From the IMG/VR virus record IMGVR_UViG_3300020213_000034, positions 611 to 64,610 of that record: a stretch of DNA of 64,000 bases; one strand, written 5' to 3'. Below are positions 1-53,911 of the stretch, piece by piece. The position numbers were made by a program, and so were the translations under genes. Below the pieces are notes generated by a model. That model saw only the letters and a program-made list of their open reading frames with translations. It was not told the DNA's origin and did no database searches. The number at the start of each line of letters is the position of its first letter. The first letter of the stretch is position 1. This DNA is from a virus. Lineage: Duplodnaviria > Caudoviricetes.

Positions 1-236
1 TCCATTTCCGCGTCGGGCTTCCATTCGAGATGCCGCCAGAGGGGTTTGGCGGCGCGTTTATTCTGTCGGTTTTCGGCCGCAAGACACCACCGGCAGTGAT
101 ACCCGCGGAACACGAACCGAGGCACTTCGCCGTGCATACCACAGGGCCCGTGCGCGTATTGGTGAGTGAGTTTCCCAGCGCGCTTGTGACATCCATCACA
201 CACGGCCTCGGTCGGTTGTTTTTCAGGAGTGCTCAT
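1..236 (-). CDS. hypothetical protein, truncated by window edge (MSTPEKQPTEAVCDGC...)
   Basis: ATG at 236 overlaps the end of the methyltransferase gene; N-terminus matches the M[NS]T[PQ]EK[QE] start shared by neighbouring genes. Confidence 0.55.
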   Translation of the reverse strand, partial: MSTPEKQPTEAVCDGCHKRAGKLTHQYAHGPCGMHGEVPRFVFRGYHCRWCLAAENRQNKRAAKPLWRHLEWKPDAEM

Positions 237-1065
237 CTTGGGTGTTCGCCAAAAGCCGAGCAAAGAGCGTCCCTTGCCCGTTCTCGAAGTATTCGTATTC
301 GTCCATCGTTGGCCCAGGGCAACCGCATTCCGAATAATCCTCCCCGCAAATTGAGCACTCGCCATATTCGTTACAGTCACCCGAAAAGGCCACCTGCTTC
401 CATCCCCCAATCGCCGGTGCCCATTGGTCTGCCATCGCCGCCGCAATGCCAGGATACGTCTTGCTGCGCAGCTTCCAACGGTCTGCGGAGGGTGTGAGCT
501 TGTTCTGTCCGCTGTCGGTCTGGTTCGCCCAACGCTCCACGTTGCCCACCATCCGCCCCGGCACTCGCTTCGTCGGCGTGAGCTTCGGAAGCCGGTGCAG
601 CCACAGGCATGTCCGCTTGCTCGCATCCTCTCCGAATTGGTAGGGCTGCACGGTCTGCGTCGGCTTGCGGATTTGAGTCGAGATTATAGACACCGGATTT
701 TCGAGATACCATGGTTTATCCCCGGCCAGCTCGATCAACTCGCGGACGAATGCGAGAGCGGCATTTGTCTTTTCCCATCCACGTCCCCGGTTGTTCCAAT
801 GGATGCCGGCGACGGTCAGGAATGTGCAGTCTGGGTGCATCCCATACCCGCCCCACTCACGCGAGCGCATCGCGTCGCGGCAGTCGCCTTGGATGTGGTA
901 TGGACTGGTATCGTCGGAAGGGAGTAGGTCGCAGCTCCATGCGTCGATTCCCTTCGCGCGGAGTGCTTCGCGCACCATTCCTGAGTGCTCGCAGCAAACC
1001 AAAAAAGACGCCGGCGGCGAACCCGTCGCCACGCCCTCGGTCGTTTCTTTTTCAGGAGTGTTCAT
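223..1065 (-). CDS. phage DNA cytosine-5 methyltransferase-like protein
   Basis: CEHSG..VR.A...G.DAWSCDL, HPDCTFL (PC-like motif IV), LENPVS, QPYQFG..ASKRTCLWL, RSKTYPGIA.AMA.QW are typical of this compact phage C5-MTase family. Confidence 0.8.
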   Translation of the reverse strand: MNTPEKETTEGVATGSPPASFLVCCEHSGMVREALRAKGIDAWSCDLLPSDDTSPYHIQGDCRDAMRSREWGGYGMHPDCTFLTVAGIHWNNRGRGWEKTNAALAFVRELIELAGDKPWYLENPVSIISTQIRKPTQTVQPYQFGEDASKRTCLWLHRLPKLTPTKRVPGRMVGNVERWANQTDSGQNKLTPSADRWKLRSKTYPGIAAAMADQWAPAIGGWKQVAFSGDCNEYGECSICGEDYSECGCPGPTMDEYEYFENGQGTLFARLLANTQDEHS

Positions 1066-2938: not shown

Positions 2939-3276
2939 GGTTGATTTGGGTTCTGTGGATCAGAATAAACCGGCAGACGCATCCATGCGACGACCTTGCC
3001 ATCGTAGTCCCAAATGGTGTTGCACGTGTCGCACGACTCTTGTTGCCAGCCGGTCCAGTAGTATTCGTCTTCTTCGCCCGGCACTGGCTCCGCATCGGAG
3101 GGCGGATCGTAGTAGTCGCTCGCTGGCATGGCGTAGCGGTTGAGGTATTCGAGCACGATGCATCTCGTTTTTCCGGGATCGGTCTGCACGGCACACCAGA
3201 AGCTTTCGCGTTTGCCCTCGGCGACGTCCGGGTTGCCGACCTGCCATTGAAGCGGTTGTTTTTCTTGAGTGTTCAT
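2935..3276 (-). CDS. hypothetical protein, paralogue B (MNTQEKQPLQWQVGNP...)
   Basis: duplicate of 2277-2618. Confidence 0.75.
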   Translation of the reverse strand: MNTQEKQPLQWQVGNPDVAEGKRESFWCAVQTDPGKTRCIVLEYLNRYAMPASDYYDPPSDAEPVPGEEDEYYWTGWQQESCDTCNTIWDYDGKVVAWMRLPVYSDPQNPNQP

Positions 3277-6799: not shown

Positions 6800-6971
6800 T
6801 GATAATAAGGGTCGTCAGCTTGTCCAGCTTGACGGCCCGGTATGGCTGAAACGGTATTGTAGCCTCAACGGATTTTGCAACCGGAGAGACCTTCACGGGC
6901 TCCGGTTTTTTCTTGGCCTTCTGCTCAACGATCTTCTCGCCAAGCAAGTCGAATACGTCAGTGGCGGACAT
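6771..6971 (-). CDS. hypothetical protein (MSATDVFDLL...)
   Basis: ORF overlapping the FkbM gene end. Confidence 0.5.
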   Translation of the reverse strand: MSATDVFDLLGEKIVEQKAKKKPEPVKVSPVAKSVEATIPFQPYRAVKLDKLTTLIINGHSAQHFA

Positions 6972-7551
6972 ACAGTGCGTCCCCAAAATCGCCGCCGTGC
7001 CATTCGGTTTCCACGCGCTTGAAGCCGCAGCTGCACAGGAACGAGTCGATCTCGTCAATCTGGGCGCAGTCCTTGAATACCTCGGCGCGATTGACCTCTG
7101 TGATGATGACATCCACCTCCTCTAGCGTGCGCCTCGCTCCGATTAGGACTGCCATCTCGTAGCCCTGCGCATCGATATAGAGAAAGTTGTAGCCCTTGAA
7201 TTCAAACTCGTCCAGCCGGCACACGATGACCTTCTGCCTCGTGTTGAACTTGATCCATGGAAGAATCTCAAGATGCTTGGCCGGTTCCAGCAGCGAGCAA
7301 GACTGCCCGCCGTTGACTGTTTCGCAAAACATTTCCGTCACGCAATTTTCACACCCGAGCGCCACGGGATACACCACGGCCTCAGGGTGATCGGCCATCA
7401 GCTTCTTGTAGTTGCTAATGATTGGCTCAAAGTGAACCTGCTTCAGGCCTAGACTATTCCACATTGGAATCTCCTCCCCGTGATGGGAGCCTACCTGAAT
7501 CACGCCACTCGGGGCGAGGTGGTGGGACTTCAGGACTTCGGGGACATTCAT
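6958..7551 (-). CDS. FkbM-family SAM-dependent methyltransferase
   Basis: VIQVGSHHGEE, HFEP, CSLLEP..HL, RLD, FLYIDAQGYE..VL.GA..TL, TEVN. Confidence 0.85.
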   Translation of the reverse strand: MNVPEVLKSHHLAPSGVIQVGSHHGEEIPMWNSLGLKQVHFEPIISNYKKLMADHPEAVVYPVALGCENCVTEMFCETVNGGQSCSLLEPAKHLEILPWIKFNTRQKVIVCRLDEFEFKGYNFLYIDAQGYEMAVLIGARRTLEEVDVIITEVNRAEVFKDCAQIDEIDSFLCSCGFKRVETEWHGGDFGDALYVRH

Positions 7552-8966
7552 TTGAGCTGGAAGTGCGTGTATTGGCTGATGTTGTGGCCAAAGCGGGCAA
7601 ACGGTCCCGTATTGTAGTCGTAGACGAAGGCCATGGCTCCGCGCTTCTGGTGGTTGAACGCCTTCAGGCGGTGCCACTCATTCGGCGCCGTAAGGCCGGG
7701 GATATATTCGATGGAGACGCCCTGCTCTTCGAAGGCGGCGGGATTGCTCGATCCCTTGCGATGCTGGTCGCCCAAGTGCCACTCGCGGAACTCGGTCTCG
7801 GACCAGTCCTTTCGGCGCTCGTTTGCCATCAAGGCAGCGAGACGAATGGGCGAAACAGAGTGGCCATGCTCGAAACCGATCAACGTCCTGCCATAGCGAT
7901 GAAACTTGTAGGGCGAAGAGCTGGCGTCCACGACCACATTCGGGTCTGTGTGAAAGTAGGCCCGAAGCAGGCGGGCCAGCGTGAAGTCAGCCATGCGGCT
8001 GTGATTGCCGGGAATCTGATAGATGTAGACCTTCTTGGCAATCTTGCGGGCGCGATTGACCATCTCGATTGCGATGCCCTCAGCGCGCTCGTAGACGTGA
8101 TGCCACGCAATGGCTTCGGGCTGGGCCGTGCCGGCTGTGGTCGTGTGAAAGACGTTGTCAACGTGCGTGAAGTCGTTGCCGAACGGCATGAAAACCTCAT
8201 CGAAAGGCCCGAACGCCATGGCTTTTTGGTAAAGGTCGTCGATGGCGGACATAATATGCGCGGCAGATAGGTCGATGTCCCACGGGCCGTCAGCCTCGGG
8301 TTGTTGGCATAGCAGGCCAATGTGCGGGTCCATGATGTCGATTTCAATGGCGCGTCGGTGGGGCAGCGTCAGCTTTCGCACCGCCGGGATGTCGAGCACT
8401 GGCGCATTTTCTTGAATCTTCCTCAGCAAGGATTCGCCGGCCAGAATCAACGGAGCCTTGCGCTTCAGCTTGACCTTCACCTGCCAGAGCTGTTCCCGAA
8501 CAGGAGTCTTGCTTCCGCGGGTCCACAGCGTGGACTGGGTGCCGTTGGGCCCGGCGGCAATGACCGTCTTGCCGTCCGCCGCTGCTCCGCCAACCGTCGT
8601 CGCCGGCTCGCGCATGATGACAGACCACTTGTTCACCTCCGAGCTTTCCACCGTCCAGATGTCGAGGTTGACCTTGGACGCCGCCAGCAATTGCTCGACG
8701 GTGGTGATGTCGGGCGACACGGAATAGGCCGTTGCCTCGTCCCCCGACTCCTTGAACCCTGATCGTGGTCCAGCCGCCTCGGAAGAGGCGCCCGTGTCGG
8801 CGGACTTATCCTTGCCGGATTCGATCGCCATTATGGCCCGACCGGCCGCGGCCCTAGAAATGCCAAGGGCGCTTGCCACGCGATGGCGCCCGTGACCCGG
8901 ATTGCGCTCGAGGTAACTTCTAATGCTTTGAATCTTTTCGCTGAACTTGACGTCTTGTTTGGTCAT
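7548..8966 (-). CDS. calcineurin-like metallophosphoesterase with N-terminal HTH
   Basis: DPHIG, GNDFTHVD, PGNH, EHGH, GDQH motifs. Confidence 0.8.
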   Translation of the reverse strand: MTKQDVKFSEKIQSIRSYLERNPGHGRHRVASALGISRAAAGRAIMAIESGKDKSADTGASSEAAGPRSGFKESGDEATAYSVSPDITTVEQLLAASKVNLDIWTVESSEVNKWSVIMREPATTVGGAAADGKTVIAAGPNGTQSTLWTRGSKTPVREQLWQVKVKLKRKAPLILAGESLLRKIQENAPVLDIPAVRKLTLPHRRAIEIDIMDPHIGLLCQQPEADGPWDIDLSAAHIMSAIDDLYQKAMAFGPFDEVFMPFGNDFTHVDNVFHTTTAGTAQPEAIAWHHVYERAEGIAIEMVNRARKIAKKVYIYQIPGNHSRMADFTLARLLRAYFHTDPNVVVDASSSPYKFHRYGRTLIGFEHGHSVSPIRLAALMANERRKDWSETEFREWHLGDQHRKGSSNPAAFEEQGVSIEYIPGLTAPNEWHRLKAFNHQKRGAMAFVYDYNTGPFARFGHNISQYTHFQLK

Positions 8967-10074: not shown

Positions 10075-10190
10075 CTGCGGCCTTAATTGCTGTCAGCGGA
10101 CGATTTATGTAGCAAGGACAAAGAACATGAAGAATAATCAAAATAGTTGTTGACGACCCCGGCTGTTTTAGTATTTGGTCAGCGTATAAC

Positions 10191-10328
10191 TCTTGTGCTT
10201 CAGGTTTGAGCTGCAATCAGACCTACGTTTCCGGAAAAACTGCCGGCCGTCCAAACCACCACCGGGTGAGAGGGGCGCAAGTGATGTTCTTTTTTGTTTC
10301 GACCAGTTCGGCGGATTGCCGGCTGGTC
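10191..10328 (+). ncRNA. structured leader RNA of the tRNA array
   Basis: closing stem CTTGTGCTTC/GGGGCGCAAG enclosing AGGTTTGA/TCAGACCT, CCGG/CCGG and CACC/GGTG hairpins, then a GACCAGTTCGGC/GCCGGCTGGTC hairpin. Confidence 0.45.
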
Positions 10329-10331
10329 TCT

Positions 10332-10406
10332 GCCTCAGTGATGTAGAAGTCAACATACGACCTTGCCAAGGTTGATACCAGAGTGCGAATCTCTGCTGGG
10401 GCACCA
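10332..10406 (+). tRNA. tRNA-Gly(GCC)
   Basis: cloverleaf; anticodon loop TTGCCAA; encoded CCA. Confidence 0.9.
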
Positions 10407-10411
10407 ATTTT

Positions 10412-10538
10412 CTGAAGACGACGGACGAGGCTTTGGCCCGGCGAAAATCCGGGATGGGTAGCGAGCGGTCGTTTTCAGGTGTCCGATGGTAGCGCGGGTC
10501 ACTTGGCTTGCCACTGTGTCAGCGCGAGAGTAGGACCT
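10412..10538 (+). ncRNA. unknown structured RNA
   Basis: CTGAAGACGAC/GTCGTTTTCAG stem enclosing a T-arm-like CCCGG-CGAAAAT-CCGGG, followed by a second paired domain. Confidence 0.4.
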
Positions 10539-10539
10539 C

Positions 10540-10628
10540 GGGTCGATTCCGATAGCAGCGAATCGTTTGGCCTTTTAAGCCAACTGGAGAAATCCACGTC
10601 GGGGGTGCAAGTCCCTCTCGGCCCACCA
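10540..10628 (+). tRNA. tRNA-Lys(TTT) with long variable arm
   Basis: TTGGC-CTTTTAA-GCCAA; variable stem TGGA-GAAA-TCCA; CCA. Confidence 0.88.
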
Positions 10629-10634
10629 ATTTAT

Positions 10635-10709
10635 GGCGGTTTAGCCAAGCAGTAAGGCAGTGGCTTGCAAACCCACTATACGTCAGTGCAATTCTGACAA
10701 CCGCCTCCA
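10635..10709 (+). tRNA. tRNA-Cys(GCA)
   Basis: loop TTGCAAA; U73; CCA. Confidence 0.9.
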
Positions 10710-10713
10710 AACT

Positions 10714-10783
10714 AGGAAGAAATGCCGGCTCGAATCCGGCGCGGTCCTACGGACCGACTCGTCTAAGCGACAAGGCGCTTCCT
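10714..10783 (+). ncRNA. circularly permuted tRNA-like RNA (YrlA/Y-RNA-like topology)
   Basis: AGGAAG, AAAT, T-arm GCCGG-CTCGAAT-CCGGC, closed acceptor hairpin CGGTCC-TAC-GGACCG, D-arm GTCT-AAGCGACA-AGGC, CTTCCT. Confidence 0.65.
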
Positions 10784-10789
10784 CTCTTT

Positions 10790-10865
10790 AGGCCGAAAGC
10801 ATTGTTAGTAATGCACCTCCCTTGCACGGAGATTTCTGCGGGTGCAACTCCCGCTCGGTCCACCA
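10790..10865 (+). tRNA. tRNA-Ala(TGC)
   Basis: loop CTTGCAC; G3-U70; CCA. Confidence 0.9.
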
Positions 10866-10871
10866 ATTTAT

Positions 10872-10929
10872 GTTCCGGCCCACCTGACTTGTGGGCTTAA
10901 ATGATGTAGTCGTAAAACTAGGAACTCCA
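10872..10929 (+). ncRNA. small three-way-junction RNA ending in CCA
   Basis: GTTCC/GGAAC stem plus TCCA; GGCCCAC/GTGGGCT and TAGT/ACTA hairpins. Confidence 0.4.
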
Positions 10930-10930
10930 T

Positions 10931-11006
10931 GCATCGGTAATTCAGTGGCCAGAATGTCTGCCTTCCAAGCAGAACGTCGTGGGTTCGACTCCCACCCGGT
11001 GCTCCA
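10931..11006 (+). tRNA. tRNA-Gly(TCC)
   Basis: canonical cloverleaf; loop CTTCCAA; U73; CCA. Confidence 0.93.
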
Positions 11007-11012
11007 TTTCAT

Positions 11013-11097
11013 CCAGCAGTGCCAGAGCAGCAATTGGAGGTGGCTGTAAACCATCTGCCTTCGGGCTACGGAGGTGCAAGTCCTTCCTGCTGGACCA
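11013..11097 (+). tRNA. tRNA-Tyr(GTA), C1-G72, long variable arm
   Basis: CCAGCAG/CTGCTGG acceptor; loop CTGTAAA. Confidence 0.9.
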
Positions 11098-11104
11098 ATT
11101 TCAT

Positions 11105-11179
11105 GGGGGATTAGCTTAAATAGTAGAGCGCGTGCCTGATTAGCGCGTGGCGGTGGAGCGTTACCACCATCCCCTACCA
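11105..11179 (+). tRNA. tRNA-Ile(GAT)
   Basis: loop CTGATTA (U37); T-loop AGCGTTA; CCA. Confidence 0.88.
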
Positions 11180-11185
11180 TTTCAT

Positions 11186-11259
11186 AGGGCCGACAGGTAT
11201 AGTATCGGCAGGCACTCCAAACGCCTAGCGAGTTGGTGCGATTCCAACCGGCCTTGCCA
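11186..11259 (+). tRNA. tRNA-Trp(CCA)
   Basis: loop CTCCAAA; G73; weak D arm; CCA. Confidence 0.82.
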
Positions 11260-11260
11260 T

Positions 11261-11378
11261 TTCAGTATGATAGCAACGATAGCGACAGCGTATGTCGCAT
11301 TGTGGATGATCCTTCTTCCGCAGTGGCGACGTAAGAACTAAGACAACAACAGGGCCGCCGGACGCCGACGCCCTCTAA
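11261..11378 (+). ncRNA. unknown structured spacer RNA
   Basis: long hairpin TATGTCGC-ATTGTGGA/TCCGCAGT-GGCGACGTA plus an AGGGC/GCCCT hairpin. Confidence 0.35.
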
Positions 11379-11383
11379 ATTTC

Positions 11384-11459
11384 GGGACGGTAGCTGATGT
11401 AGTCATAGCGGCGGCCTGAAGAGCCGTTGAAGTTGGTGCAATTCCAACCCGTCCCACCA
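11384..11459 (+). tRNA. tRNA-Phe(GAA)
   Basis: loop CTGAAGA; CCA. Confidence 0.9.
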
Positions 11460-11465
11460 TTTTAT

Positions 11466-11537
11466 TGCCGGGAGATTTGGAATCCTCCAGCCTCATAAGC
11501 TCGGATGAAGTGAGTTCGATTCTCACCCCAGCATCCA
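11466..11537 (+). tRNA. tRNA with CAT anticodon (Met/fMet-like), miniature D arm
   Basis: loop CTCATAA; T arm GTGAG-TTCGATT-CTCAC; CCA. Confidence 0.78.
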
Positions 11538-11543
11538 TTTCAT

Positions 11544-11619
11544 CGGTCCAAAGTGTTACTTGGTCGCACACTCCGTTTGGGGCGGAATAGTCGGGGTTCA
11601 AATCCCCGTGGGCCGACCA
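11544..11619 (+). tRNA. tRNA-Pro(TGG)
   Basis: C1-G72; loop TTTGGGG; CCA. Confidence 0.92.
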
Positions 11620-11642
11620 CCTTCGTCAGCAATATCAACCCA

Positions 11643-11999
11643 ATGCTAGTCATTTTCATTCTCATGAATATCTCCTGCCCCCCGAATTACAAGACGTCCG
11701 TCTCCGCCAGCCCGCGCAATCAGTTCGGGATGCTTGGCGGATATACGCCTCCGCTTCAGTGGAGCGTTGATCCGACGTTTGGCTCGTTTATTGAAGACCC
11801 GGAGCATCCCGGCGACACAACCCTCGGCTTCTTCGTTGCGACAACCGATAATGCAAGGTATGGCCAAACGACCAATTATACGGTCACGGCCCAAACGGTC
11901 AACGGGCCAGTCGTGCAAAGTGGAGGCGTGCAGCTAAGTTTTCCGGAGGCCCCGGCTGACCATATTACGGTGACCGTGGGTCTACCAGTCCCTGCCTAA
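11643..11999 (+). CDS. hypothetical beta-rich (Ig-like?) protein inside the tRNA array
   Basis: ~118-aa ORF filling the gap between two tRNA-Pro genes; alternative start at 11664. Confidence 0.6.
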   Translation: MLVIFILMNISCPPNYKTSVSASPRNQFGMLGGYTPPLQWSVDPTFGSFIEDPEHPGDTTLGFFVATTDNARYGQTTNYTVTAQTVNGPVVQSGGVQLSFPEAPADHITVTVGLPVPA

Positions 12000-12009
12000 T
12001 GGCAGTTTT

Positions 12010-12085
12010 CCAGATGTGGTGCCAAAGGCTGGCGACTCCGCTCGGAACGGAGATTATGCAGGTTCGAGTCCTGTCATCTGGACCA
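12010..12085 (+). tRNA. tRNA-Pro(CGG)
   Basis: loop CTCGGAA; CCA. Confidence 0.9.
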
Positions 12086-12089
12086 TTTC

Positions 12090-12167
12090 AAATCAGCGGT
12101 GAGCCGGCGCGAATCCGGCCTGCACCTCGGCCAAGGTTTTTCGCGGGCTCCGCGAATCCGCTGATTT
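12090..12167 (+). ncRNA. unknown four-way RNA with 5'-proximal T-arm
   Basis: AAATCAGCGG/CCGCTGATTT stem; GCCGG-CGCGAAT-CCGGC; TTCGCGG/CCGCGAA. Confidence 0.5.
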
Positions 12168-12177
12168 TCACTTTCAC

Positions 12178-12251
12178 GGGTTATTGTTGAATGAGTATCT
12201 TGTCCCTCTGTCTAAGGGACGTAGCGAGTGCGAGTCTCGCATAGCCCGCCA
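12178..12251 (+). tRNA. tRNA-Asp(GTC), unpaired D region
   Basis: loop CTGTCTA; G73; CCA. Confidence 0.82.
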
Positions 12252-12255
12252 TTTC

Positions 12256-12331
12256 CCACGATTAGTTCAACGGCTAGAACGGCAGTCCTACACACTGCGC
12301 GCAGAGGGTTCGACTCCTTCATCGTGGACCA
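12256..12331 (+). tRNA. tRNA-Val(TAC)
   Basis: loop CCTACAC (C33); CCA. Confidence 0.88.
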
Positions 12332-12336
12332 TTTAT

Positions 12337-12415
12337 TGCAAGGAAGGCAAATCGGTGAACGCCGGCAGTCTGTTAAACTGTGTCGTAGATGGTTCGACCC
12401 CATCCCTTGCAGCCA
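12337..12415 (+). tRNA. tRNA-Asn(GTT)
   Basis: loop CTGTTAA; G73; CCA. Confidence 0.9.
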
Positions 12416-12419
12416 TTTC

Positions 12420-12495
12420 GGGAGTGTAGCTCAGCAGTCAGAGCATTCGGTTGTTAACCGACAGCGCGCAGGTGCGAATCCTGCCACTCCCTCCA
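12420..12495 (+). tRNA. tRNA with GTT anticodon but U73 (identity uncertain)
   Basis: GGGAGTG/CACTCCC-T-CCA; loop TTGTTAA. Confidence 0.82.
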
Positions 12496-12496
12496 T

Positions 12497-12572
12497 TCTC
12501 GCGTAGCTCAGTAGTTAGAGCGCCTCCTTGACATGGAGTAGGTCGCTGGTGCGATTCCAGCTGCGAGAACCA
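12497..12572 (+). tRNA. tRNA-Val(GAC)
   Basis: loop TTGACAT; CCA. Confidence 0.9.
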
Positions 12573-12577
12573 TTTGA

Positions 12578-12637
12578 GCCCTTGGACAATACCGTGTGCC
12601 GCATCCCGGCAGCTGTGCGACCCAGCAATCCAACGGC
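12578..12637 (+). ncRNA. small structured RNA / degenerate tRNA-like element
   Basis: GCC-TTGGA/TCCAA-GGC stem; TGCCG/CGGCA; T-like GCTG-TGCGACC-CAGC. Confidence 0.4.
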
Positions 12638-12643
12638 GGTTAC

Positions 12644-12718
12644 GGGCCTATAGTGTAACAGTCAGCACACGGAGCTTTGACCTCTTGAGACTAGGTGCAA
12701 ATCCTAGTGGGCCTGCCA
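12644..12718 (+). tRNA. tRNA-Gln(TTG)
   Basis: loop CTTTGAC; G73; CCA. Confidence 0.9.
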
Positions 12719-12725
12719 ATTTCAT

Positions 12726-12800
12726 GCCTCGTTCGTATATCGGCAATTACGCCGCTCTCTGAAAGCGGACAGGGTGGTTCGATTCCATCACGGGGCGCCA
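12726..12800 (+). tRNA. tRNA-Gln(CTG)
   Basis: loop CTCTGAA; G73; CCA. Confidence 0.9.
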
Positions 12801-13022
12801 TTTCAATCGCGGGCATTCGCTGTCTTGTCTATCTGGCGGGATAGAGGAAGTTCGCGTCTGCACAACACGTCGAGGCAGGCTCACGCCGTTACGACCTCAC
12901 GACCGCAGCAAGCCAAACAGAACGAGGGGTGAGTGTTGCTCCTATGACTTCGGGTTGGCGCTCAGACAAATGAATGCCTCCTGCTTCGGCAGAAGACAGA
13001 AACGCGGCTACAGCGATTGAAA
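12801..13022 (+). ncRNA. rnpB: minimal RNase P RNA (catalytic domain intact, specificity domain nearly absent)
   Basis: P1 TTTCAATCGC/GCGATTGAAA; P2 GGGCATTC/GAATGCCT; P3; CR-I GAGGAAGTTCGCGT pairing with CR-V ACAGAAACGCGGCTA (P4 with bulged U); P5; P6; P15 with GGU; CR-IV AGACAAATG; P19 CTGC-TTCG-GCAG. Confidence 0.88.
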
Positions 13023-13029
13023 ACTTTAC

Positions 13030-13104
13030 GGACCACAAGCATTAACAGTGATGCACTAGGCTCTTACCCTTGGGAACACGGCGCAATACCGTGGCGGTCC
13101 ACCA
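13030..13104 (+). tRNA. tRNA-Lys(CTT)
   Basis: loop CTCTTAC; CCA. Confidence 0.9.
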
Positions 13105-13106
13105 AT

Positions 13107-13160
13107 TTCTGCCAGTTGCCGGATACCCAACGCGGTTCCCGGAACCTTCTTCTGGCAGGA
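13107..13160 (+). ncRNA. small structured spacer element
   Basis: TTCTGCCAG/CTGGCAGGA stem enclosing GGTTCC/GGAACC. Confidence 0.35.
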
Positions 13161-13164
13161 TCAT

Positions 13165-13236
13165 GGCCGGCGATTCAGCAATCCACAGACTCTCATAAGG
13201 TCAGTGAATCCGGGGCAGCACCGGAGCCAGCTTCCA
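13165..13236 (+). tRNA. tRNA with CAT anticodon (Met or Ile2), reduced D arm
   Basis: loop CTCATAA; T-loop GGCAGCA; CCA. Confidence 0.75.
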
Positions 13237-13241
13237 ATTTC

Positions 13242-13319
13242 GGTCTAAATGCGGAGATAGTCACCGCGCATCATTGGTAATGATGAATAGGCTGGGTGCG
13301 AATCCCAGTTAGACCTCCA
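13242..13319 (+). tRNA. tRNA-Thr(GGT)
   Basis: loop TTGGTAA; U73; CCA. Confidence 0.9.
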
Positions 13320-13325
13320 GTTTAC

Positions 13326-13409
13326 GGGGATATGGTGGAACGGCAGACACAGTTGCCTTAGAAGCATCCGACGAAAGTCATGGGGGTTCAAATCCCTCTA
13401 TCCCTACCA
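13326..13409 (+). tRNA. tRNA-Leu(TAG)
   Basis: loop CTTAGAA; long variable arm; CCA. Confidence 0.92.
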
Positions 13410-13415
13410 ATTTAT

Positions 13416-13490
13416 GGCCGATTCGACAACCAGCTAAGTCCTCGCCCTTTCAAGGCGAAGTAGTGGGGGCAGCACCCACATCGGCTACCA
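13416..13490 (+). tRNA. tRNA-Glu(TTC)
   Basis: loop CTTTCAA; CCA. Confidence 0.9.
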
Positions 13491-13495
13491 TTTAT

Positions 13496-13570
13496 GGCCT
13501 GTTCGTCTATAAGTCAGGACGGTTGCTTCTCAAGCATCAAAGGCGGGAGCGTTACCCGCACAGGCTACCA
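13496..13570 (+). tRNA. tRNA-Glu(CTC)
   Basis: loop TTCTCAA; CCA. Confidence 0.88.
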
Positions 13571-13571
13571 T

Positions 13572-13805
13572 TTGATTGGAACTACCCAGATGCGCTGGGA
13601 CGTGGCAGCAGGAAGCTGAAGGGGATGCGCAAGCGAGTCGGGTCATGGCTGACAAGGGCGAAACTCCGTTACACTAAGGCACTCCCAGAGATCGTAAGCT
13701 CTGGCTCCGCGCTGCAGGGAAGCATTTTCAAATGAGCGGTCAACCGAATGCCATCCCTCCGCTACACGGGCCTCTCGGCGGGATGCAAAACCCGCTTTCA
13801 ATCAA
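13572..13805 (+). ncRNA. unknown ~235-nt multi-helix RNA
   Basis: terminal stem TTGATTGGAA/TTTCAATCAA; nested GTGGC/GCTAC and GGGGATG/CATCCCT; hairpins CCCAG/CTGGG, CAGC/GCTG, CCAGAG/CTCTGG, GCATT/AATGC, GCGGG/CCCGC. Confidence 0.6.
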
Positions 13806-13808
13806 TCT

Positions 13809-13892
13809 CGGCTTGTGGTGGAACAGCAGACACAGGGCGCTCAAAACGCCCCGCCTAACCGCGTGAGGGTGCGATTCCCTCCTTGCCGACCA
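13809..13892 (+). tRNA. tRNA-Leu(CAA)
   Basis: loop CTCAAAA; long variable arm; CCA. Confidence 0.9.
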
Positions 13893-13899
13893 ATTTCAT

Positions 13900-13990
13900 A
13901 GTCTCGTGTCCCAGCGGACCCGGAGGATTTATACCCCTCAGTGCGCCAGATTAGCGCCGTGACTGGGGGCAGCACCCAGCGGGACTACCA
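13900..13990 (+). tRNA. tRNA-Ile(TAT) with long variable arm
   Basis: GAGGA-TTTATAC-CCCTC; variable stem GCGC/GCGC; AGTCTCG/CGGGACT acceptor; CCA. Confidence 0.8.
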
Positions 13991-13994
13991 TTTC

Positions 13995-14066
13995 GCAGAT
14001 GCCTTCAGCAAGGCAGCGGCTTTCGTAAAGCTGATGAAGTCGGGGCAGCACCGACCTTCTGCTCCA
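13995..14066 (+). tRNA. tRNA-Thr(CGT)
   Basis: loop TTCGTAA; U73; CCA. Confidence 0.8.
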
Positions 14067-14072
14067 TTTCAT

Positions 14073-14146
14073 GTTGGCTTGTATTCAGCAATCCTACCGC
14101 CCTTGTAGCGCGGAAGAAGCCGGGGCAGCACCGGCAGCCAACTCCA
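14073..14146 (+). tRNA. tRNA-Thr(TGT)
   Basis: loop CTTGTAG; U73; CCA. Confidence 0.8.
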
Positions 14147-14152
14147 TTTCAT

Positions 14153-14231
14153 CAGGGGAAGTAGTGTAACGCAGCAAACACTGGAGATTGTGAACCTCCG
14201 ATTGTGGGTGCAAATCCCGCCCCCCTGACCA
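14153..14231 (+). tRNA. tRNA-His(GTG) lacking G-1/C73
   Basis: loop TTGTGAA; acceptor CAGGGG/CCCCTG; A73; CCA. Confidence 0.85.
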
Positions 14232-14235
14232 TTTC

Positions 14236-14310
14236 CCCGTCATAGCTCAAGAGACAGAGCAAGCCCCTGCGAAGGGCGAGATTGCAGTGCGAGTCTGCAT
14301 GATGGGACCA
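14236..14310 (+). tRNA. tRNA-Arg(GCG)
   Basis: loop CTGCGAA; CCA. Confidence 0.88.
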
Positions 14311-14314
14311 TTTC

Positions 14315-14391
14315 GTCTCGTTACATCAATCATATAGACCCGGGCCTTCTAAGCCTTGTGGATGCTGGTGAGAGCCCAGCACGAGACACCA
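14315..14391 (+). tRNA. tRNA-Arg(TCT)
   Basis: loop CTTCTAA; T-loop TGAGAGC; CCA. Confidence 0.85.
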
Positions 14392-14394
14392 ATT

Positions 14395-14464
14395 TGCGGA
14401 TACTTATTGGGGTAGTGCCCAAGCCCAAAGGACGGCACCAAGTCCGAGTAAGGTAATATCCGTG
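14395..14464 (+). ncRNA. long interrupted hairpin RNA
   Basis: GCGGATA/TATCCGT, CTTATT/AGTAAG and GTGCC/GGCAC nested stems. Confidence 0.4.
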
Positions 14465-14474
14465 ATATATTTTT

Positions 14475-14549
14475 GCTCCATTCGTCCAATGTACAGGGCC
14501 TGCGTCTTCGGAACGCATGATGAGGGTTAGATTCCTTCATGGAGCGCCA
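14475..14549 (+). tRNA. tRNA-Arg(TCG)
   Basis: loop CTTCGGA; CCA. Confidence 0.9.
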
Positions 14550-14567
14550 CTTTATAAAAACCATCAC

Positions 14568-14642
14568 TCTCTTGTAGCACAAAGGACAGTGCGGCGGTTT
14601 CCTAAACCGTTGATGCGGGTTCAAGTCCCGCCGAGAGAACCA
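14568..14642 (+). tRNA. tRNA-Arg(CCT)
   Basis: loop TTCCTAA; CCA. Confidence 0.92.
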
Positions 14643-14645
14643 TTT

Positions 14646-14731
14646 GGAGACGCAATCCAGCGGGGCTGGAACGGGCCTTGAAAACCCAGTGACGCGAAAG
14701 CGTTGGGATTCGATTTCTCGCGTCTCCGCCA
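14646..14731 (+). tRNA. tRNA-Ser(TGA), 8/4 fold
   Basis: 8-bp acceptor GGAGACGC/GCGTCTCC; 4-bp T stem; G73. Confidence 0.88.
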
Positions 14732-14735
14732 ATTT

Positions 14736-14823
14736 GGACAGTCAATCATGCAAGGCATGGCTCGCCCTCGAAAAGCGAAGGACGCAGCAATGCGTTGGGG
14801 TGCAACTCCTCGGCTCTCCGCCA
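14736..14823 (+). tRNA. tRNA-Ser(CGA), 8/4 fold
   Basis: GGACAGTC/GGCTCTCC; 6-bp D stem; loop CTCGAAA; G73. Confidence 0.88.
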
Positions 14824-14824
14824 C

Positions 14825-14912
14825 GGAAGGTTAACTGCTCAGGGAGCAGAACGCTCTGGAAAGGCGCTTGTTCGGGAAACCGGATGGGATTCGACTTCTC
14901 AGCCTTCCGCCA
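14825..14912 (+). tRNA. tRNA-Ser(GGA), 8/4 fold
   Basis: GGAAGGTT/AGCCTTCC; D stem CTGCTC/GAGCAG; loop CTGGAAA. Confidence 0.88.
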
Positions 14913-14916
14913 TTCT

Positions 14917-15007
14917 GGAGAGTGAACCAAGGCAGCCTTGGGATTCTTTGCTAAAGAAATCGTTCGGGCTTGACCCGGATTGGGGGCAGCACCTACTCTC
15001 TCCGCCA
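14917..15007 (+). tRNA. tRNA-Ser(GCT), 8/4 fold
   Basis: GGAGAGTG/CTCTCTCC; D stem CCAAGG/CCTTGG; loop TTGCTAA. Confidence 0.88.
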
Positions 15008-15020
15008 CTTCGAAACAAAA

Positions 15021-15638
15021 ATGAACATCAAGAACGTGCTCGGGCTACCCGTGCTTTCGCTCAACAAGAATTGGCAGGCTTACGACGACAGGAAGAACGT
15101 CAGAAGGGCATTCGAGGACATGACGTCCGGCATCGACCTACCAGCATTCTACGGGATGGACATCGAGCTTCACCCTGACGGCACGCTGATCTACGCCAAT
15201 CCGTGCGACATGGATGATTGGGAGCAGCTGGCCGTGCGTCCCGGGGACGACTTCATCTTCACTGGCCGCAGGAACATCCGCGCACCCCGGGTCATCATCA
15301 GCCGCAACTACGACAAGACCTCGGTCAAGCCAATCAAGCTTACCTACTCGGCCATCAAGAAGAGGGACAAGCAGCAGTGCCAATACTGCCGCCAGTTCTT
15401 TCCGCTCGAGGAGCTGAATGTTGACCACGTAACCCCCCGTCACCACGGCGGCGTGGACTCGTGGGATAACCTTGTATGCTCGTGCATCCCGTGCAACAGC
15501 AAGAAGGGGCACAAGCTGAACGAGGAAATCGGCTACGTTCCGCTGAATTCGCCCAAGCAGCCGTTGCCGCTTCCGGAAACATTCATTTCGAACGCCAAGC
15601 ACCCCAGCTGGATTCCGTTCATGGTGGCCGCGAAATAG
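15021..15638 (+). CDS. HNH endonuclease (McrA-like), tRNA-array associated
   Basis: RD...CQYC...LNVDHVTPR..GG.DSWDNLV.SC.PCN.KKG. Confidence 0.9.
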   Translation: MNIKNVLGLPVLSLNKNWQAYDDRKNVRRAFEDMTSGIDLPAFYGMDIELHPDGTLIYANPCDMDDWEQLAVRPGDDFIFTGRRNIRAPRVIISRNYDKTSVKPIKLTYSAIKKRDKQQCQYCRQFFPLEELNVDHVTPRHHGGVDSWDNLVCSCIPCNSKKGHKLNEEIGYVPLNSPKQPLPLPETFISNAKHPSWIPFMVAAK

Positions 15639-19750: not shown

Positions 19751-21391
19751 ATGGCTGATTCATCGCTCAGGCCCCAAGTTGGCGACACGTCCAACCTCCT
19801 TCTCAAGAAGCTCGTAGAAGCTACGCAGGCGCTTGCGGCTGGTGGCGGAGGCGGTGGCATTCCAGACGCTCCAGTCGATGGAATAACTTACGGCAGAAAG
19901 GATGCTGCGTGGGTTGCTGTTCAGGCGGGATACATCGATGGCGATGTCCAGTTCTACGCCGACCTTCCGATCACGATTGGAACCCCAGCGCTGGACTCGG
20001 CGTATCTGGTGCGCGAGCCATCCGGCGTTTGGTTGGTCAACTACCACCCGGCCGGCATCTATATCCGCACGGGAAATTCTGGCGCGTTGTCCGACTGGAC
20101 ATACGCAGGAGAATTCCCTGATGTTTTTAGTGACGCGAACTTTCAGGTCTATAACGCAGCGGATGCCACCAAGCAGCTGAAGTTTGGGGTCGGCCTTATT
20201 ACTCCAGCCACGGTTCGAACCGCGCAGTGGCCGGACAAAGATGGCACTGTTGCTATGCTGGATGACGTCCAGCCGGGCCCAACCGGTCCTACGGGTCCTA
20301 CTGGAGCCGCTTCTACAGTCGCAGGCCCAACCGGCCCAACAGGCCCAACGGGTGCTAACTCTACTGTGGCCGGCCCGACTGGCCCGACCGGTGCTAACTC
20401 TACTGTGGCTGGCCCGACTGGCCCGACCGGTGCTAACTCTACTGTGGCTGGTCCAACCGGTCCTACGGGGCCGGTATCAACTGTGGCCGGTCCAACCGGT
20501 CCCACTGGCGCGAACTCCACGGTGGCCGGACCCACGGGCCCAACAGGGCCAACAGGACCGACCGGTGCAAATTCTACGGTGGCCGGCCCGACAGGCCCAA
20601 CCGGTCCGACAGGCCCAACAGGTGCAGATTCTACTGTGGCTGGCCCGACAGGCCCGACTGGCCCGACCGGTGCAAACTCTACGGTGGCCGGCCCAACCGG
20701 ACCAACCGGTCCGACCGGTGCTAACTCTACGGTGGCTGGCCCAACCGGGCCAACAGGGCCAACCGGTCCAACTGGGCCAACTGGTGCAAATTCTACGGTA
20801 GCCGGTCCAACAGGACCAACAGGACCAACAGGTCCAACTGGTGCTGACTCTACGGTGGCTGGCCCAACCGGGCCAACAGGGCCGGCCACGGCTCTCTACA
20901 ACGCGAACGCCACTGATGTCGTGGCCAACGCCACCGACACTTATCTAACCGGCTCCGCGCTCACGGTCTCTGGATTCATCAAGGTCGGATCAACCCTGCG
21001 CTGGTCCCTCATGGCCAGCAAGACGGTAGCGGGCACAGCGGTCCCGACCTATAATATCCGATTCGGCGCGGGAGGCACCCTGACCGACACGGCCCGCATC
21101 ACCACAACCGGCGTCGCCCAGACTGCTGCGACCGACTTTGCCCGCATCGACATTGTCGCGGTAGTCCGTGCCCTCGGCGCCACCACCGTCGTTGCTGGTG
21201 GCCACTGCTTGCAGCACAGCAACGGCGTTATCGGCTTCAAGAACGACGAGGGAAACAACATTGCCAGCGCCACATCCGCCGCATTTGATTCCACGCCGGG
21301 CAGCACGCAGGCCGGCATCTCCATCAATCCCGGCGCTGCTGGGGTCTGGACATTTCAAGTGGTTTCTGCGTGTCTTGAGAACACCGCATGA
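19751..21391 (+). CDS. collagen-like virion fibre protein
   Basis: [15 protein letters not shown] fibritin/foldon-like motif; (GPT)n repeats broken 12 times by G-x-x-STVA. Confidence 0.85.
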
Positions 21392-22452
21392 GATTCCATG
21401 TTGCAGCCCTACCCAATGTTCAGACTACCCGCGCTTATTCACTGTGCGGTTTTTGCATGGCGACGATTCGCTTTTGCGCCTTGCTCAAAGAGCTTGGGCA
21501 CACCGTTTATCTCTACGCATCAGAGGAAAACGAAGCCCCTTGCGACGAGCTGATCGCTGTCATCACGAAAGAGGAGCAGCAGACAATCATCGGGAAAGGG
21601 GAGTATCAACACGCGACGACCGACGCGCAATATCCGCTCTGGGCCCTATCGAATTCTCGCACTATAAAAGAAATTGAGAAGCGCAAGCAGCCGCGTGATT
21701 TCATCTGCATTATTGGCGGCGTGTCTCAGGAGGCTTTGGCCAAGGCCCACCCCGACCTGATGACAGTGGAATACTCCATCGGCTACGTCAGTTCGTTCTC
21801 CAAATACAAGGTCTTTGAAAGCCACGCTTGGAGGCACATGACCTACGGCGCGTGCCACGACGTTATGGGGCATTTCTTCGATGTCGTCATCCCGCTATCC
21901 TATGACGAGACGGAGTTTCGATTCAACCCCACGCCCGAGCCATTCGCCCTTTATGTTGGGCGCCTGATCCCGAACAAGGGCCTTTCCATCGCGTGCGAGG
22001 CCGCGAAGGAGGCCGGCGTCCCCCTAAAGGTCATCGGCCACGGAGACAAATCCCTGATTACCCATGGCGCGGAATACCTCGGGGCGTTGTCGATGGAGGA
22101 ACGGAACGAATGGATGGCTCGCGCCTCCATGTTGCTATGCCCAACTTTCTACGTTGAACCATTCGGCGGCGTGGCAGTCGAGGCGCAGCTTTGCGGAACG
22201 CCTGTAGTTGCCACCGACTTCGGCGGATTCCTCGACACTATTGAGGAAGGCAAGACCGGCTACCACTGCAACTACATGGGGGGATTTGTGGACGCCATCA
22301 AGAGGGCGCCCGCCCTAGACCGGGCCTACATCCGGGAGAGAGCGGTTTCCACCTACTCCATTCATGCCGTAAAGCATGCCTACGAACATTACTTCAAGCG
22401 GCTGATGCTCCTATGGGGCGACGGATTCAATAGTCTGGAGGTAATCAAATAA
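21388..22452 (+). CDS. glycosyltransferase family 4 (GT-B)
   Basis: [31 protein letters not shown]. Confidence 0.9.
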
Positions 22453-48775: not shown

Positions 48776-49074
48776 AGCGAACGCCCATCCGCCGCGTCAG
48801 CAAGAAACGCATGCGAGACATGCGGGAATACTCGAAGCTTCGCAAGGAGTTCCTCGAAAAGCACGTCAACTGTCAGGCGTGGCCAGTAATCCGTTGCCAC
48901 CTGAAGATGCACGGGCTTCCGCCCCCGCCGTCAACCGAGGTCCACCACAAGGCCAAGCGCGGCAAGAATTACCTCAACACTGATACGTGGCTGGCCGTGT
49001 GCCGCGCTAGTCATGAGTGGATCGAGAACCACAAAAACGTAGCCCGTCAGCTGGGCCTTTTGGAGAACATCTGA
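48772..49074 (+). CDS. small HNH-like protein
   Basis: MKRTPIRRVSKK; STEVHH...RG......WLAVCR..H.WI. Confidence 0.75.
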   Translation: MKRTPIRRVSKKRMRDMREYSKLRKEFLEKHVNCQAWPVIRCHLKMHGLPPPPSTEVHHKAKRGKNYLNTDTWLAVCRASHEWIENHKNVARQLGLLENI

Positions 49075-53831: not shown

Positions 53832-53911
53832 GCCCGCCGAGCATTCACATGCCAAAAACGCTGTCAAAACAAAATTATTGACGAATTAAGGCCATCTAAT
53901 ACCATGATCGG

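Follow-up and report, generated by a model that had tools for sequence, protein, structure and literature searches.

We analysed a 64,000-nucleotide (nt) stretch of phage DNA (the window), bases 611-64610 of the 64,610-base IMG/VR virus record IMGVR_UViG_3300020213_000034, and found on its plus strand, within positions 10332-15007, an array of 38 cloverleaf transfer RNA (tRNA) genes. All 38 units have an encoded CCA end, and together they supply 36 distinct anticodons and cover the 20 amino acids. A 220-nt element resembling the RNA of ribonuclease P (RNase P) lies between two of the tRNA genes, two thirds of the tRNAs have a rewired elbow and a gene for an HNH endonuclease closes the array at its 3' end. 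We consider the array likely to be a mobile cassette for the production of tRNAs, probably transcribed as one unit; CheckV puts the phage genome at ~94% completeness. A first-pass annotation, made from the sequence alone, had described a self-contained tRNA supply operon of 38 co-oriented, CCA-encoding tRNAs for all 20 amino acids and had read it as a replacement for host tRNAs destroyed by anticodon nucleases. The observation was confirmed by the scan and parse described below, and the notion of a self-contained supply is supported by the near-complete decoding set, the identity features of the tRNAs, the RNase P RNA-like gene and the array-associated HNH gene; the interpretation was supported in part.

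A CCA followed by (A)TTT repeats about every 80 bases in this region, which prompted a scan anchored on a 7-base-pair (bp) acceptor stem, a 5-bp T stem with a 7-nt loop, N73 and CCA, with each unit then parsed into a cloverleaf. The anchored scan returned 37 units inside 10332-14912, to which a 38th (14917-15007) with a 4/5 T stem was added. As controls, the same scan gave 2 weak matches on the other 59 kilobases (kb) of the plus strand, 4 on the whole minus strand and a mean of 0.06 matches (maximum 2) on 100 shuffles of the 5-kb array. Curated tools were more conservative: ARAGORN at default settings called 21 tRNAs, all on the plus strand, and Rfam at gathering score called 18 over the whole window, with 22 RF00005 rows (21 at or above the gathering score) in E-value mode on the region and one additional, below-threshold match to the tRNA-Sec model in a sensitive search of the region. 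The RF00005 gathering score (29 bits) was reached by 21/38 units, with 17 below. The ARAGORN check proposed with the first-pass annotation thus gave 21 tRNAs by default and 25 as a union with Rfam at curated thresholds, and the full 38 need the relaxed or anchored scan. Six of the 13 extra units were also called by ARAGORN at a relaxed threshold, a setting that also gives many overlapping false calls, and the other seven were found by the anchored scan only (the whole GGCAGCA T-loop class of six, and tRNA-Trp).

The units fill 2970 of 4676 nt, or 8.1 tRNA genes per kb. Among the 37 junctions, 25 measure 12 nt or less, one is of 18 nt and 11 exceed 50 nt, and TTT occurs within four bases 3' of the CCA in 31/37 units, in agreement with the mostly short, U-rich spacers first described. 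The order of anticodons along the array shows no repeat. With 38 units (25 even at curated thresholds) and 8.1 genes per kb, the array has the at least 20 genes and at least 2 genes per kb of a tRNA array unit (Tran et al., 2016). It likewise has the single orientation, short gaps and non-periodic order of L-arrays (Santamaria-Gomez et al., 2021), and their association with horizontal transfer and homing endonucleases is matched by the HNH gene at the 3' end and by related arrays in viral contigs and bacterial genome bins. The features of the array are as follows, in window coordinates; G55 denotes a T-loop with G55-C56, and the tools named are those that called the unit.

10332-10406, plus strand: tRNA-Gly(GCC), T-loop TGCGAAT (G55); ARAGORN default, Rfam 54.6 bits.
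10540-10628, plus strand: tRNA with Lys anticodon TTT, 89 nt, 17-nt variable arm, T-loop TGCAAGT; ARAGORN, Rfam 27 bits (sub-gathering).
10635-10709, plus strand: tRNA-Cys(GCA), G55; ARAGORN default and Rfam.
10710-10789, plus strand: 80-nt spacer, four-way-junction fold with T-arm-like hairpin and closed 'acceptor' hairpin; z -1.95, reached by 9/200 shuffles.
10790-10865, plus strand: tRNA-Ala(TGC), G3:U70, A1/C72 mismatch, G55; ARAGORN default and Rfam.
10931-11006, plus strand: tRNA-Gly(TCC), canonical elbow; ARAGORN default, Rfam 66.1 bits.
11013-11097, plus strand: tRNA-Tyr(GTA), long variable arm, G55; ARAGORN default.
11105-11179, plus strand: tRNA-Ile(GAT), T-loop AGCGTTA; Rfam 43.6 bits, ARAGORN relaxed.
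11186-11259, plus strand: tRNA-Trp(CCA), G55, weak D stem; anchored scan only.
11384-11459, plus strand: tRNA-Phe(GAA), G55; ARAGORN default and Rfam.
11466-11537, plus strand: tRNA(CAT), 72 nt, very small D-arm, canonical T-loop; ARAGORN default.
11544-11619, plus strand: tRNA-Pro(TGG), canonical; ARAGORN default and Rfam.
11627-12002, plus strand: 376-nt insertion with orphan open reading frame (ORF) 11643-11999 (118 amino acids); contig joins in sequencing runs X4 and X5.
12010-12085, plus strand: tRNA-Pro(CGG), canonical; ARAGORN default and Rfam.
12086-12177, plus strand: 92-nt spacer, 9-bp closing stem, T-arm-like hairpin; z -3.23, 0/200 shuffles.
12178-12251, plus strand: tRNA-Asp(GTC), G55; ARAGORN relaxed.
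12256-12331, plus strand: tRNA-Val(TAC), canonical; ARAGORN default and Rfam.
12337-12415, plus strand: tRNA-Asn(GTT), canonical; ARAGORN default, Rfam 43.5 bits.
12420-12495, plus strand: tRNA-Asn(GTT), G55; ARAGORN default and Rfam.
12497-12572, plus strand: tRNA-Val(GAC), G55; ARAGORN default and Rfam.
12644-12718, plus strand: tRNA-Gln(TTG), G55; Rfam 48.5 bits, ARAGORN relaxed.
12726-12800, plus strand: tRNA-Gln(CTG), canonical; ARAGORN default and Rfam.
12802-13021, plus strand: putative miniature RNase P RNA, 220 nt; RF00373 match over model positions 1-288.
13030-13104, plus strand: tRNA-Lys(CTT), T-loop CGCAATA; ARAGORN relaxed.
13165-13236, plus strand: tRNA(CAT), 72 nt, T-loop GGCAGCA; anchored scan only.
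13242-13319, plus strand: tRNA-Thr(GGT), G55; ARAGORN default, Rfam 44.3 bits.
13326-13409, plus strand: tRNA-Leu(TAG), canonical, long variable arm; ARAGORN default and Rfam.
13416-13490, plus strand: tRNA-Glu(TTC), T-loop GGCAGCA, all stems perfect; anchored scan only.
13496-13570, plus strand: tRNA-Glu(CTC), T-loop AGCGTTA; Rfam 37.5 bits, ARAGORN relaxed.
13571-13808, plus strand: 238-nt non-coding spacer, 10-bp closing stem adjoining the flanking tRNAs; z -0.08, no Rfam match.
13809-13892, plus strand: tRNA-Leu(CAA), G55, long variable arm; ARAGORN default.
13900-13990, plus strand: aberrant 91-nt tRNA-like unit, two anticodon-arm-like hairpins (TAT, GAT), T-loop GGCAGCA; anchored scan only.
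13995-14066, plus strand: tRNA-Thr(CGT), T-loop GGCAGCA; anchored scan only.
14073-14146, plus strand: tRNA-Thr(TGT), T-loop GGCAGCA; anchored scan only.
14153-14231, plus strand: tRNA-His(GTG), G55, A73; Rfam 31.6 bits, ARAGORN relaxed.
14236-14310, plus strand: tRNA-Arg(GCG), G55; ARAGORN default and Rfam.
14315-14391, plus strand: tRNA-Arg(TCT), T-loop TGAGAGC, weak D-arm; anchored scan, parsed otherwise by relaxed ARAGORN.
14475-14549, plus strand: tRNA-Arg(TCG), T-loop TTAGATT; ARAGORN default and Rfam.
14568-14642, plus strand: tRNA-Arg(CCT), canonical; ARAGORN default, Rfam 65.1 bits.
14646-14731, plus strand: tRNA-Ser(TGA), canonical T-loop; tRNA-Sec model 36.2 bits (sub-gathering), ARAGORN relaxed.
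14736-14823, plus strand: tRNA-Ser(CGA), G55; ARAGORN relaxed.
14825-14912, plus strand: tRNA-Ser(GGA), canonical T-loop; ARAGORN relaxed.
14917-15007, plus strand: tRNA-Ser(GCT), T-loop GGCAGCA, T stem 4/5; anchored scan.
15021-15638, plus strand: HNH endonuclease gene, 205 amino acids from ATG; Pfam HNH_5 and HNH, 24 PHROG HNH families.

The units carry the features expected of genuine tRNAs. The acceptor stem is complete (7/7) in 29/37 units, U33 is present in 36/37 and a purine at position 37 in 35/37, and when folded singly 27/38 units gave a cloverleaf-like minimum-energy structure. The tRNA-Ala keeps G3:U70, as read from the parsed sequence; long variable arms occur in 4/4 Ser (G73) and 2/2 Leu (A73) tRNAs and in tRNA-Tyr (A73), and an A follows the D-loop G in 3/4 Arg tRNAs and in none of the other families, all of which we take to be identity elements by Escherichia coli rules. 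Natural variation points the same way. The same DNA or near-identical variants occurred in contigs of six public sequencing runs (one labelled hypersaline lake metagenome, the other five microbial mat metagenome), of which three may be where this DNA came from. Inside the array, the near-identical variant of run X5 differs by 10 base changes and 2 one-base deletions. Only 2/12 of these differences fall in the 2970 nt of tRNA, both in tRNA-Ala, where G1 restores the 1:72 pair and the other alters U33; the ribozyme-like element has none, and the remaining 10/12 lie in spacers or the ORF segment. The scarcity of variants in the tRNAs and ribozyme fits purifying selection, with the caveat that six clustered changes could have arisen in one event.

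Several units depart from the standard form. The aberrant unit 13900-13990 has a perfect acceptor stem and two hairpins whose anticodons, TAT and GAT, are both Ile, and may be either a five-way junction or a damaged gene. In unit 10540-10628 a Lys anticodon (TTT) occurs together with a variable arm of 17 nt (a stem plus GAAA loop), and the D-arm and T-loop are similar to those of tRNA-Tyr in this array. CAT tRNAs of 70-72 nt with a very small D-arm, either Met or Ile2, occur in two arrays, at 11466-11537 and 13165-13236 of the window and on the reverse strand (3118-3187) of L090, one of the related arrays described below.

The elbow, where the D-loop and T-loop meet, is the part of the tRNAs that has changed systematically. 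The T-loop consensus TTCRANY was found in 11/38 units, an NGC loop (G55-C56) in 25/38 and other loops in 2 (TGAGAGC and TTAGATT); the 25 NGC loops comprise TGCRANT (16), GGCAGCA (6), AGCGTTA (2) and CGCAATA (1). The canonical elbow of G18-G19 with T54-U55-C56 is present in 11/38 units only. The two loops changed together: the D-loop has AG without GG in 21/24 scored G55-C56 units and GG in 11/11 T55-C56 units of the window (Fisher, P = 2.7e-7). On the usual numbering, the G18-U55 contact would thus be exchanged for A18-G55, with the outer G19-C56 pair retained. The altered elbow spans at least 17 amino-acid families. A weak link between T-loop class and the base after the D-loop AG (P = 0.027) was not relied on.

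Related arrays were sought by a pattern derived from two adjacent GGCAGCA T-arms. In the viral set, 13 stretches matched, including two arrays with the same odd loops (L007, 31 units; L013, 21 units), and among at least 120 matching stretches of the bacterial set three further arrays with odd loops were found (L028, L085/L236 and L090), all in genome bins labelled Verrucomicrobiota. Pooling the six arrays, G55-C56 units had AG in 65 cases and GG in 11, and T55-C56 units had AG in 0 and GG in 41 (P = 1e-21). In 32 other phage arrays, fetched via their HNH genes, GG occurred in 562/567 T55-C56 units and AG in 13/13 G55-C56 units. Since these 32 arrays returned 567 T55-C56 against 13 G55-C56 units, the anchored scan does not create G55 artefactually, and the covariation of positions 18 and 55 holds beyond the array family with odd loops. 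Distant arrays thus contain the odd loop types within perfect cloverleaves, and the pattern shows the design to be conserved. On the reverse strands of L236 and L090, Leu anticodon CAG tRNAs have a short 5-nt variable loop (a reading of the parser only), unusual for bacterial tRNA-Leu. One Chthoniobacterales genome bin has two separate low-scoring tRNA arrays on contigs C9 and C95, one of these contigs being of 106 kb.

In the three Verrucomicrobiota genomes, dispersed tRNAs scored 55-77 bits compared to 30-55 bits for array tRNAs, and all 19 dispersed housekeeping tRNAs fetched (19/19) were canonical. The related arrays hint at, and do not prove, a verrucomicrobial host for the phage. Recent capture of the array from these candidate hosts was considered and rejected, the array tRNAs matching the sampled housekeeping tRNAs at only 37-52 of 72-86 positions. 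When 12 units were compared with housekeeping tRNAs from the candidate host phylum, 7/12 had the same anticodon loop; where the array departs from the norm, it does so in the elbow rather than in that loop.

The gene closing the array, as first described, starts 14 nt 3' of the last tRNA, and its product matched Pfam HNH_5 (1.5e-13, 50.9 bits) and HNH (3.9e-13, 49.8 bits), both over the cut-offs, as well as 24 PHROG HNH families. A homologue (34% over 195 residues) lies beside the L028 array and another inside the L007 array. In metagenomes, an HNH relative was encoded in 182/237 candidate stretches, and among the best 80 of these 182 loci, 32 carry at least four co-oriented, CCA-ending tRNA units. 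This association agrees with the published accounts of L-arrays, of mycobacterial arrays and of SegB, a homing endonuclease that acts for the tRNA region of T4 (cited in PMC8421152).

The ribozyme proposed in the first-pass annotation corresponds to an RNase P RNA-like element at 12802-13021, within the 229-nt spacer between tRNA-Gln(CTG) and tRNA-Lys(CTT). In a 1-kb search, the archaeal model RNaseP_arch (RF00373) matched over its whole length (31.4 bits, E 4.8e-7; 1.3e-7 on repeat with alignment), and a search of the whole record with RF00373 gave 39.6 bits (E 1.9e-11). Rfam searches of 64 kb and 5.4 kb returned no ribozyme match; the 1-kb search applies laxer filters than these larger ones. 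As a control, a genuine 364-nt bacterial RNase P RNA from a Verrucomicrobiota genome scored 42.7 bits on the same archaeal model, and everything else in three genomes totalling 12 Mb scored 15 bits or less.

Helices were read from the RF00373 alignment and the sequence. P1 (12802-12810/13013-13021) has 9 bp and is flush with the flanking tRNAs, P2 (12812-18/12972-78) has seven perfect pairs and P3 is a hairpin at 12820-44. The conserved region I (CR-I) stretch GAGGAAGUUC is present, CR-I and the 5' strand of P4 occupying 12844-57; P4 pairs 12849-56 with 13003-09 and has a bulged U at 12851. An ACAGAAA stretch and the P4 3' strand occupy 12996-13009, with conserved region V (CR-V) present, so that the P1-P4 pseudoknot, CR-I, CR-V and the bulged U of the catalytic core are all found. 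P5 (12858-61/12905-08) encloses a stub of ~43 nt instead of the specificity domain (S-domain; P7-P14), 117 model positions of which align to 37 nt. AGCAAG and then P15 (12912-16/12955-59) follow, and an extra UUCG hairpin lies at 12981-92, between P2 and ACAGAAA. In bacterial RNase P the GGU that pairs with the substrate CCA sits in the part enclosed by P15, and a GGU is found within the corresponding region here, which may pair with substrate CCA in the same way.

We regard 12802-13021 as very probably an RNase P RNA of which little but the catalytic domain remains. Several results weigh against this: the RF00373 score of 31-40 bits is far under the 84 bits set as gathering score; neither the type A model of bacteria (RF00010) nor the type T model (RF02357) gave a match at E<=1; no second copy that could be examined for covariation was found with RF00373 on five related records, which returned a host gene only; a sensitive Rfam search of two long gaps of L007 and L090 found no RNase P element; and motif scans of all fetched loci (returning the window, one host RNase P and one chance match) and nhmmer found no homologue. 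Seven viral-contig stretches obtained with a three-motif ribozyme pattern were rejected as purine-rich chance matches with no tRNAs nearby. The low score and the lack of homologues in these searches, together with the missing S-domain and the unusual extra hairpin that separates P2 from ACAGAAA, could alternatively mark the element as an inactive relic, a decoy or a regulator rather than a working ribozyme. We think this unlikely: the S-domain has been removed cleanly, leaving a 43-nt stub closed by P5, P1 adjoins the tRNAs on either side, the bulged U of P4 is retained, and natural variants show no differences in the element. The fold stability of the ribozyme spacer was ordinary compared to 200 shuffles.

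About ten structured non-tRNA elements had also been described between the tRNAs. The 11 long junctions do exist, but when 10 of the spacers were folded only 12086-12177 and 13105-13164 were more stable than every one of 200 shuffles; another four were reached by 3-9 shuffles, and the remaining four, the ribozyme spacer and 13571-13808 among them, were ordinary. End-to-end pairing of the 11 long spacers taken jointly was marginally above shuffles (0.044). Spacers 10411-10479, 10714-10783 and 12090-12167 share a common closing stem and a T-arm-like hairpin of nearly the same stem, and the topology of 10710-10789 is tRNA-like with a closed acceptor end and an open anticodon end. None of these three spacers matched an Rfam family, including in a sensitive search of 10100-10940, so the earlier term 'tRNA mimics' remains a description; YrlA rows in Rfam (E 0.38 and 3.2) overlap true tRNAs only, and blastn of the spacers against the related arrays gave chance matches of 17 nt or less only. 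The 65-nt spacer 10866-10930 was not counted as a conserved RNA, because it holds 6/12 of the X5 differences, one of which breaks its stem. The internal ORF is present at 11643-11999 as annotated, and its 118-residue product matched no Pfam or PHROG family and no homologue other than itself. Contigs from runs X4 and X5 join 11626 to 12003 via nine other letters, so that 11627-12002 is an insertion absent from some natural genomes; X5 also holds contigs with the insertion, indicating an insertion/deletion polymorphism.

The DNA is that of a tailed phage: besides the HNH endonuclease it encodes proteins of the head and tail fibres, a loader resembling DnaC and an exonuclease for DNA repair, and most of the other ORFs matched no Pfam family among the 41 distinct ORFs scanned. 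The record has no end repeats; window positions 1-600 and both record ends are GC-rich, with GGCGGC-type repeats within coding-like sequence and no terminal repeat seen. No close sequenced phage was found: blastn against 50,697 phage records gave tRNA-sized matches only, at no more than 2% query coverage. Searches with the exonuclease and the DnaC-like protein led to three records at 41-43% identity, all of them fragments (16-19% complete) with no tRNAs and no RNase P match, which are for these reasons uninformative on the array. A group 1 glycosyltransferase (21388-22452), a Stealth-like protein below the Pfam cut-off (49017-50564), a C-methyltransferase (52614-53867) and an FkbM methyltransferase (6958-7677) could form a sugar-modification set.

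If the array works as a production cassette, its long transcript would be cut by RNase P at the 5' end of each tRNA. Because 25 of the 37 spacers are of 1-7 nt, a single cut would also free the upstream tRNA with a short U-rich tail. Exonucleases would then remove this tail as far as the encoded CCA, as is usual in bacteria for tRNA genes that encode their CCA. The phage ribozyme would add capacity for the 38 cuts that each transcript needs and, with its elbow-reading domain gone, should not be affected by the altered elbows. Host synthetases would then charge the phage tRNAs, allowing translation to be sustained independently of the host tRNA pool, and the HNH endonuclease would spread or retain the cassette.

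A number of observations weigh against this reading of the array. A sigma-70 scan of the plus strand found no sigma-70-like promoter, and the array stretch was found in no RNA run among the listed public runs. The 19-tRNA housekeeping sample leans canonical because top-scoring matches were taken, and the six X5 differences clustered in spacer 10866-10930 may be a single event. Thirteen of the 38 units miss curated thresholds, unit 13900-13990 is aberrant, and tRNA-Ala has the A1/C72 mismatch and, in the X5 variant, C33.

For the function of the cassette, the first-pass annotation proposed replacement of host tRNAs cut by anticodon nucleases, aided by RNA-healing enzymes of the phage. A near-complete set of 36 anticodons for 20 amino acids would suit such a role, and tRNA arrays and phage tRNAs have been proposed as counter-defence (PMC10264068, PMC12803027). 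The healing enzymes, however, did not materialise. The PseT-like 3'-phosphatase and the metallophosphoesterase that it named gained no support from Pfam in the 64.6-kb record, where PNK3P (PF08645) gave no match at E<=0.1 and Metallophos none; RNA ligase (PF09414) also gave no match at E<=0.1, so that by these models neither the polynucleotide kinase 3'-phosphatase nor the RNA ligase of T4-type tRNA repair was found, and none of the 41 distinct ORFs scanned has a tRNA-related domain. Its RNase HI survives as a weak RNase H-like ORF (RVT_3 1e-7), with RNase_H itself at 0.0036, below the cut-off. Escape from anticodon nucleases also sits poorly with 7/12 anticodon loops equal to those of the candidate host phylum and with a systematic change located in the elbow, and we find replacement of nuclease-cut tRNAs doubtful.

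Compensation for codon usage, with the tRNAs supplying codons that the host decodes poorly, is the classical account of phage tRNAs (PMC6409571), but 36 anticodons for all 20 amino acids are not aimed at a few rare codons, and we judge it decidedly unlikely as the explanation. It is improbable that the array is a selfish, HNH-driven cassette with many decaying pseudogenes of little use to the phage: the sub-threshold units, the aberrant unit, the tRNA-Ala mismatches, the insertion/deletion of the ORF segment, the HNH genes that travel with arrays and the tRNA-less phage fragments related via replication genes would all suit it, but decay would not yield matched D-loop and T-loop changes nor keep U33, R37, G3:U70 and perfect stems, the odd loops recur with perfect cloverleaves in distant arrays and variants in the tRNAs are few.

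With the production cassette retained as the favoured reading, the purpose of the rewired elbow can be addressed only tentatively. Our preferred guess is that the tRNAs in this way escape some enzyme or defence of the host that recognises G18/U55, which we offer as a possibility rather than a probability; we know of no defence that reads the tRNA elbow. Independence from elbow-modifying enzymes, or a mark that sets phage tRNAs apart from those of the host, are other possibilities. More speculative and unlikely as a whole is a semi-orthogonal system, in which tRNAs with A18-G55, GGCAGCA and AGCGTTA would evade an elbow-reading factor and an RNase P without S-domain would be co-adapted to them, the two together acting as a single module for counter-defence or takeover. 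In phage T5, the tRNAs by which it evades tRNA-targeting defences are changed in the anticodon loop (PMC10264068); the present tRNAs would likewise depart from the host at a host-recognised site, in this case the elbow. The nearest natural loss of the elbow contact is in the non-proteinogenic tRNA-Gly of Staphylococcus aureus, which serves cell-wall synthesis without G18, G19, U55 and C56 (PMC4574755), whereas the phage tRNAs keep G19 and C56 and swap only 18/55. No relevant paper on A18-G55 tRNAs was found by title or abstract among open-access papers and bioRxiv, and the T-loop review PMC7912444 mentions neither G55 nor A18.

The T4 tRNA cluster also encodes two stable RNAs of unknown role, and the type T RNase P RNA of Pyrobaculum is minimal, with its specificity domain lost. 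The phage element resembles RNase P RNAs (clan CL00002) in P1-P4, CR-I, CR-V and the bulged U, and type T in the loss of the specificity domain. It differs from known RNase P RNAs in being phage-borne, of 220 nt and sub-gathering on RF00373 with an extra hairpin between P2 and J2/4, and it is not type T by RF02357. Listings and abstracts of open-access papers and bioRxiv yielded no paper on a phage-encoded RNase P RNA. Published tRNA array units and L-arrays are defined by a minimum of 20 genes and a density of no less than 2 per kb (PMC8421152, PMC4758250, PMC6582537). Like the L-arrays, among them the Anabaena trn operon and those of Acidithiobacillus and Mycobacterium, the present array is long, dense, same-strand and non-periodic, and such arrays are horizontally spread and often have a homing endonuclease nearby. 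Unlike them it sits in a 65-kb phage, two thirds of its elbows are rewired and it has an RNase P RNA-like gene inside; the available portions of the three papers mention neither feature, the RNase P content of PMC6582537 concerning the host gene only. In a survey of phage tRNA clusters (Morgado and Vicente, 2019; PMC6409571), clusters had 15-37 genes, densities were 2-10 per kb and genome sizes 72-617 kb; HNH genes accompany some of the clusters, and all 20 isotypes occur in 8/228. With 38 genes in a 64.6-kb record the present array falls just outside both the gene-number and genome-size ranges.

tRNA arrays, phage tRNA clusters and their endonucleases are thus already known, and the purpose of phage tRNA arrays is still argued. 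Because default tRNA finders overlook a third of the genes and the ribozyme, surveys undercount such systems. The 5.4 kb described here unite a complete decoding set in a small genome, a covarying replacement of a highly conserved tertiary contact and what is very probably a stripped-down RNase P ribozyme. Should the RNAs prove active, a minimal bacterial-type RNase P would become testable at 220 nt, the elbow contact would be shown to be replaceable in working tRNAs, and there would be a concrete handle on how a phage benefits from its own tRNAs.

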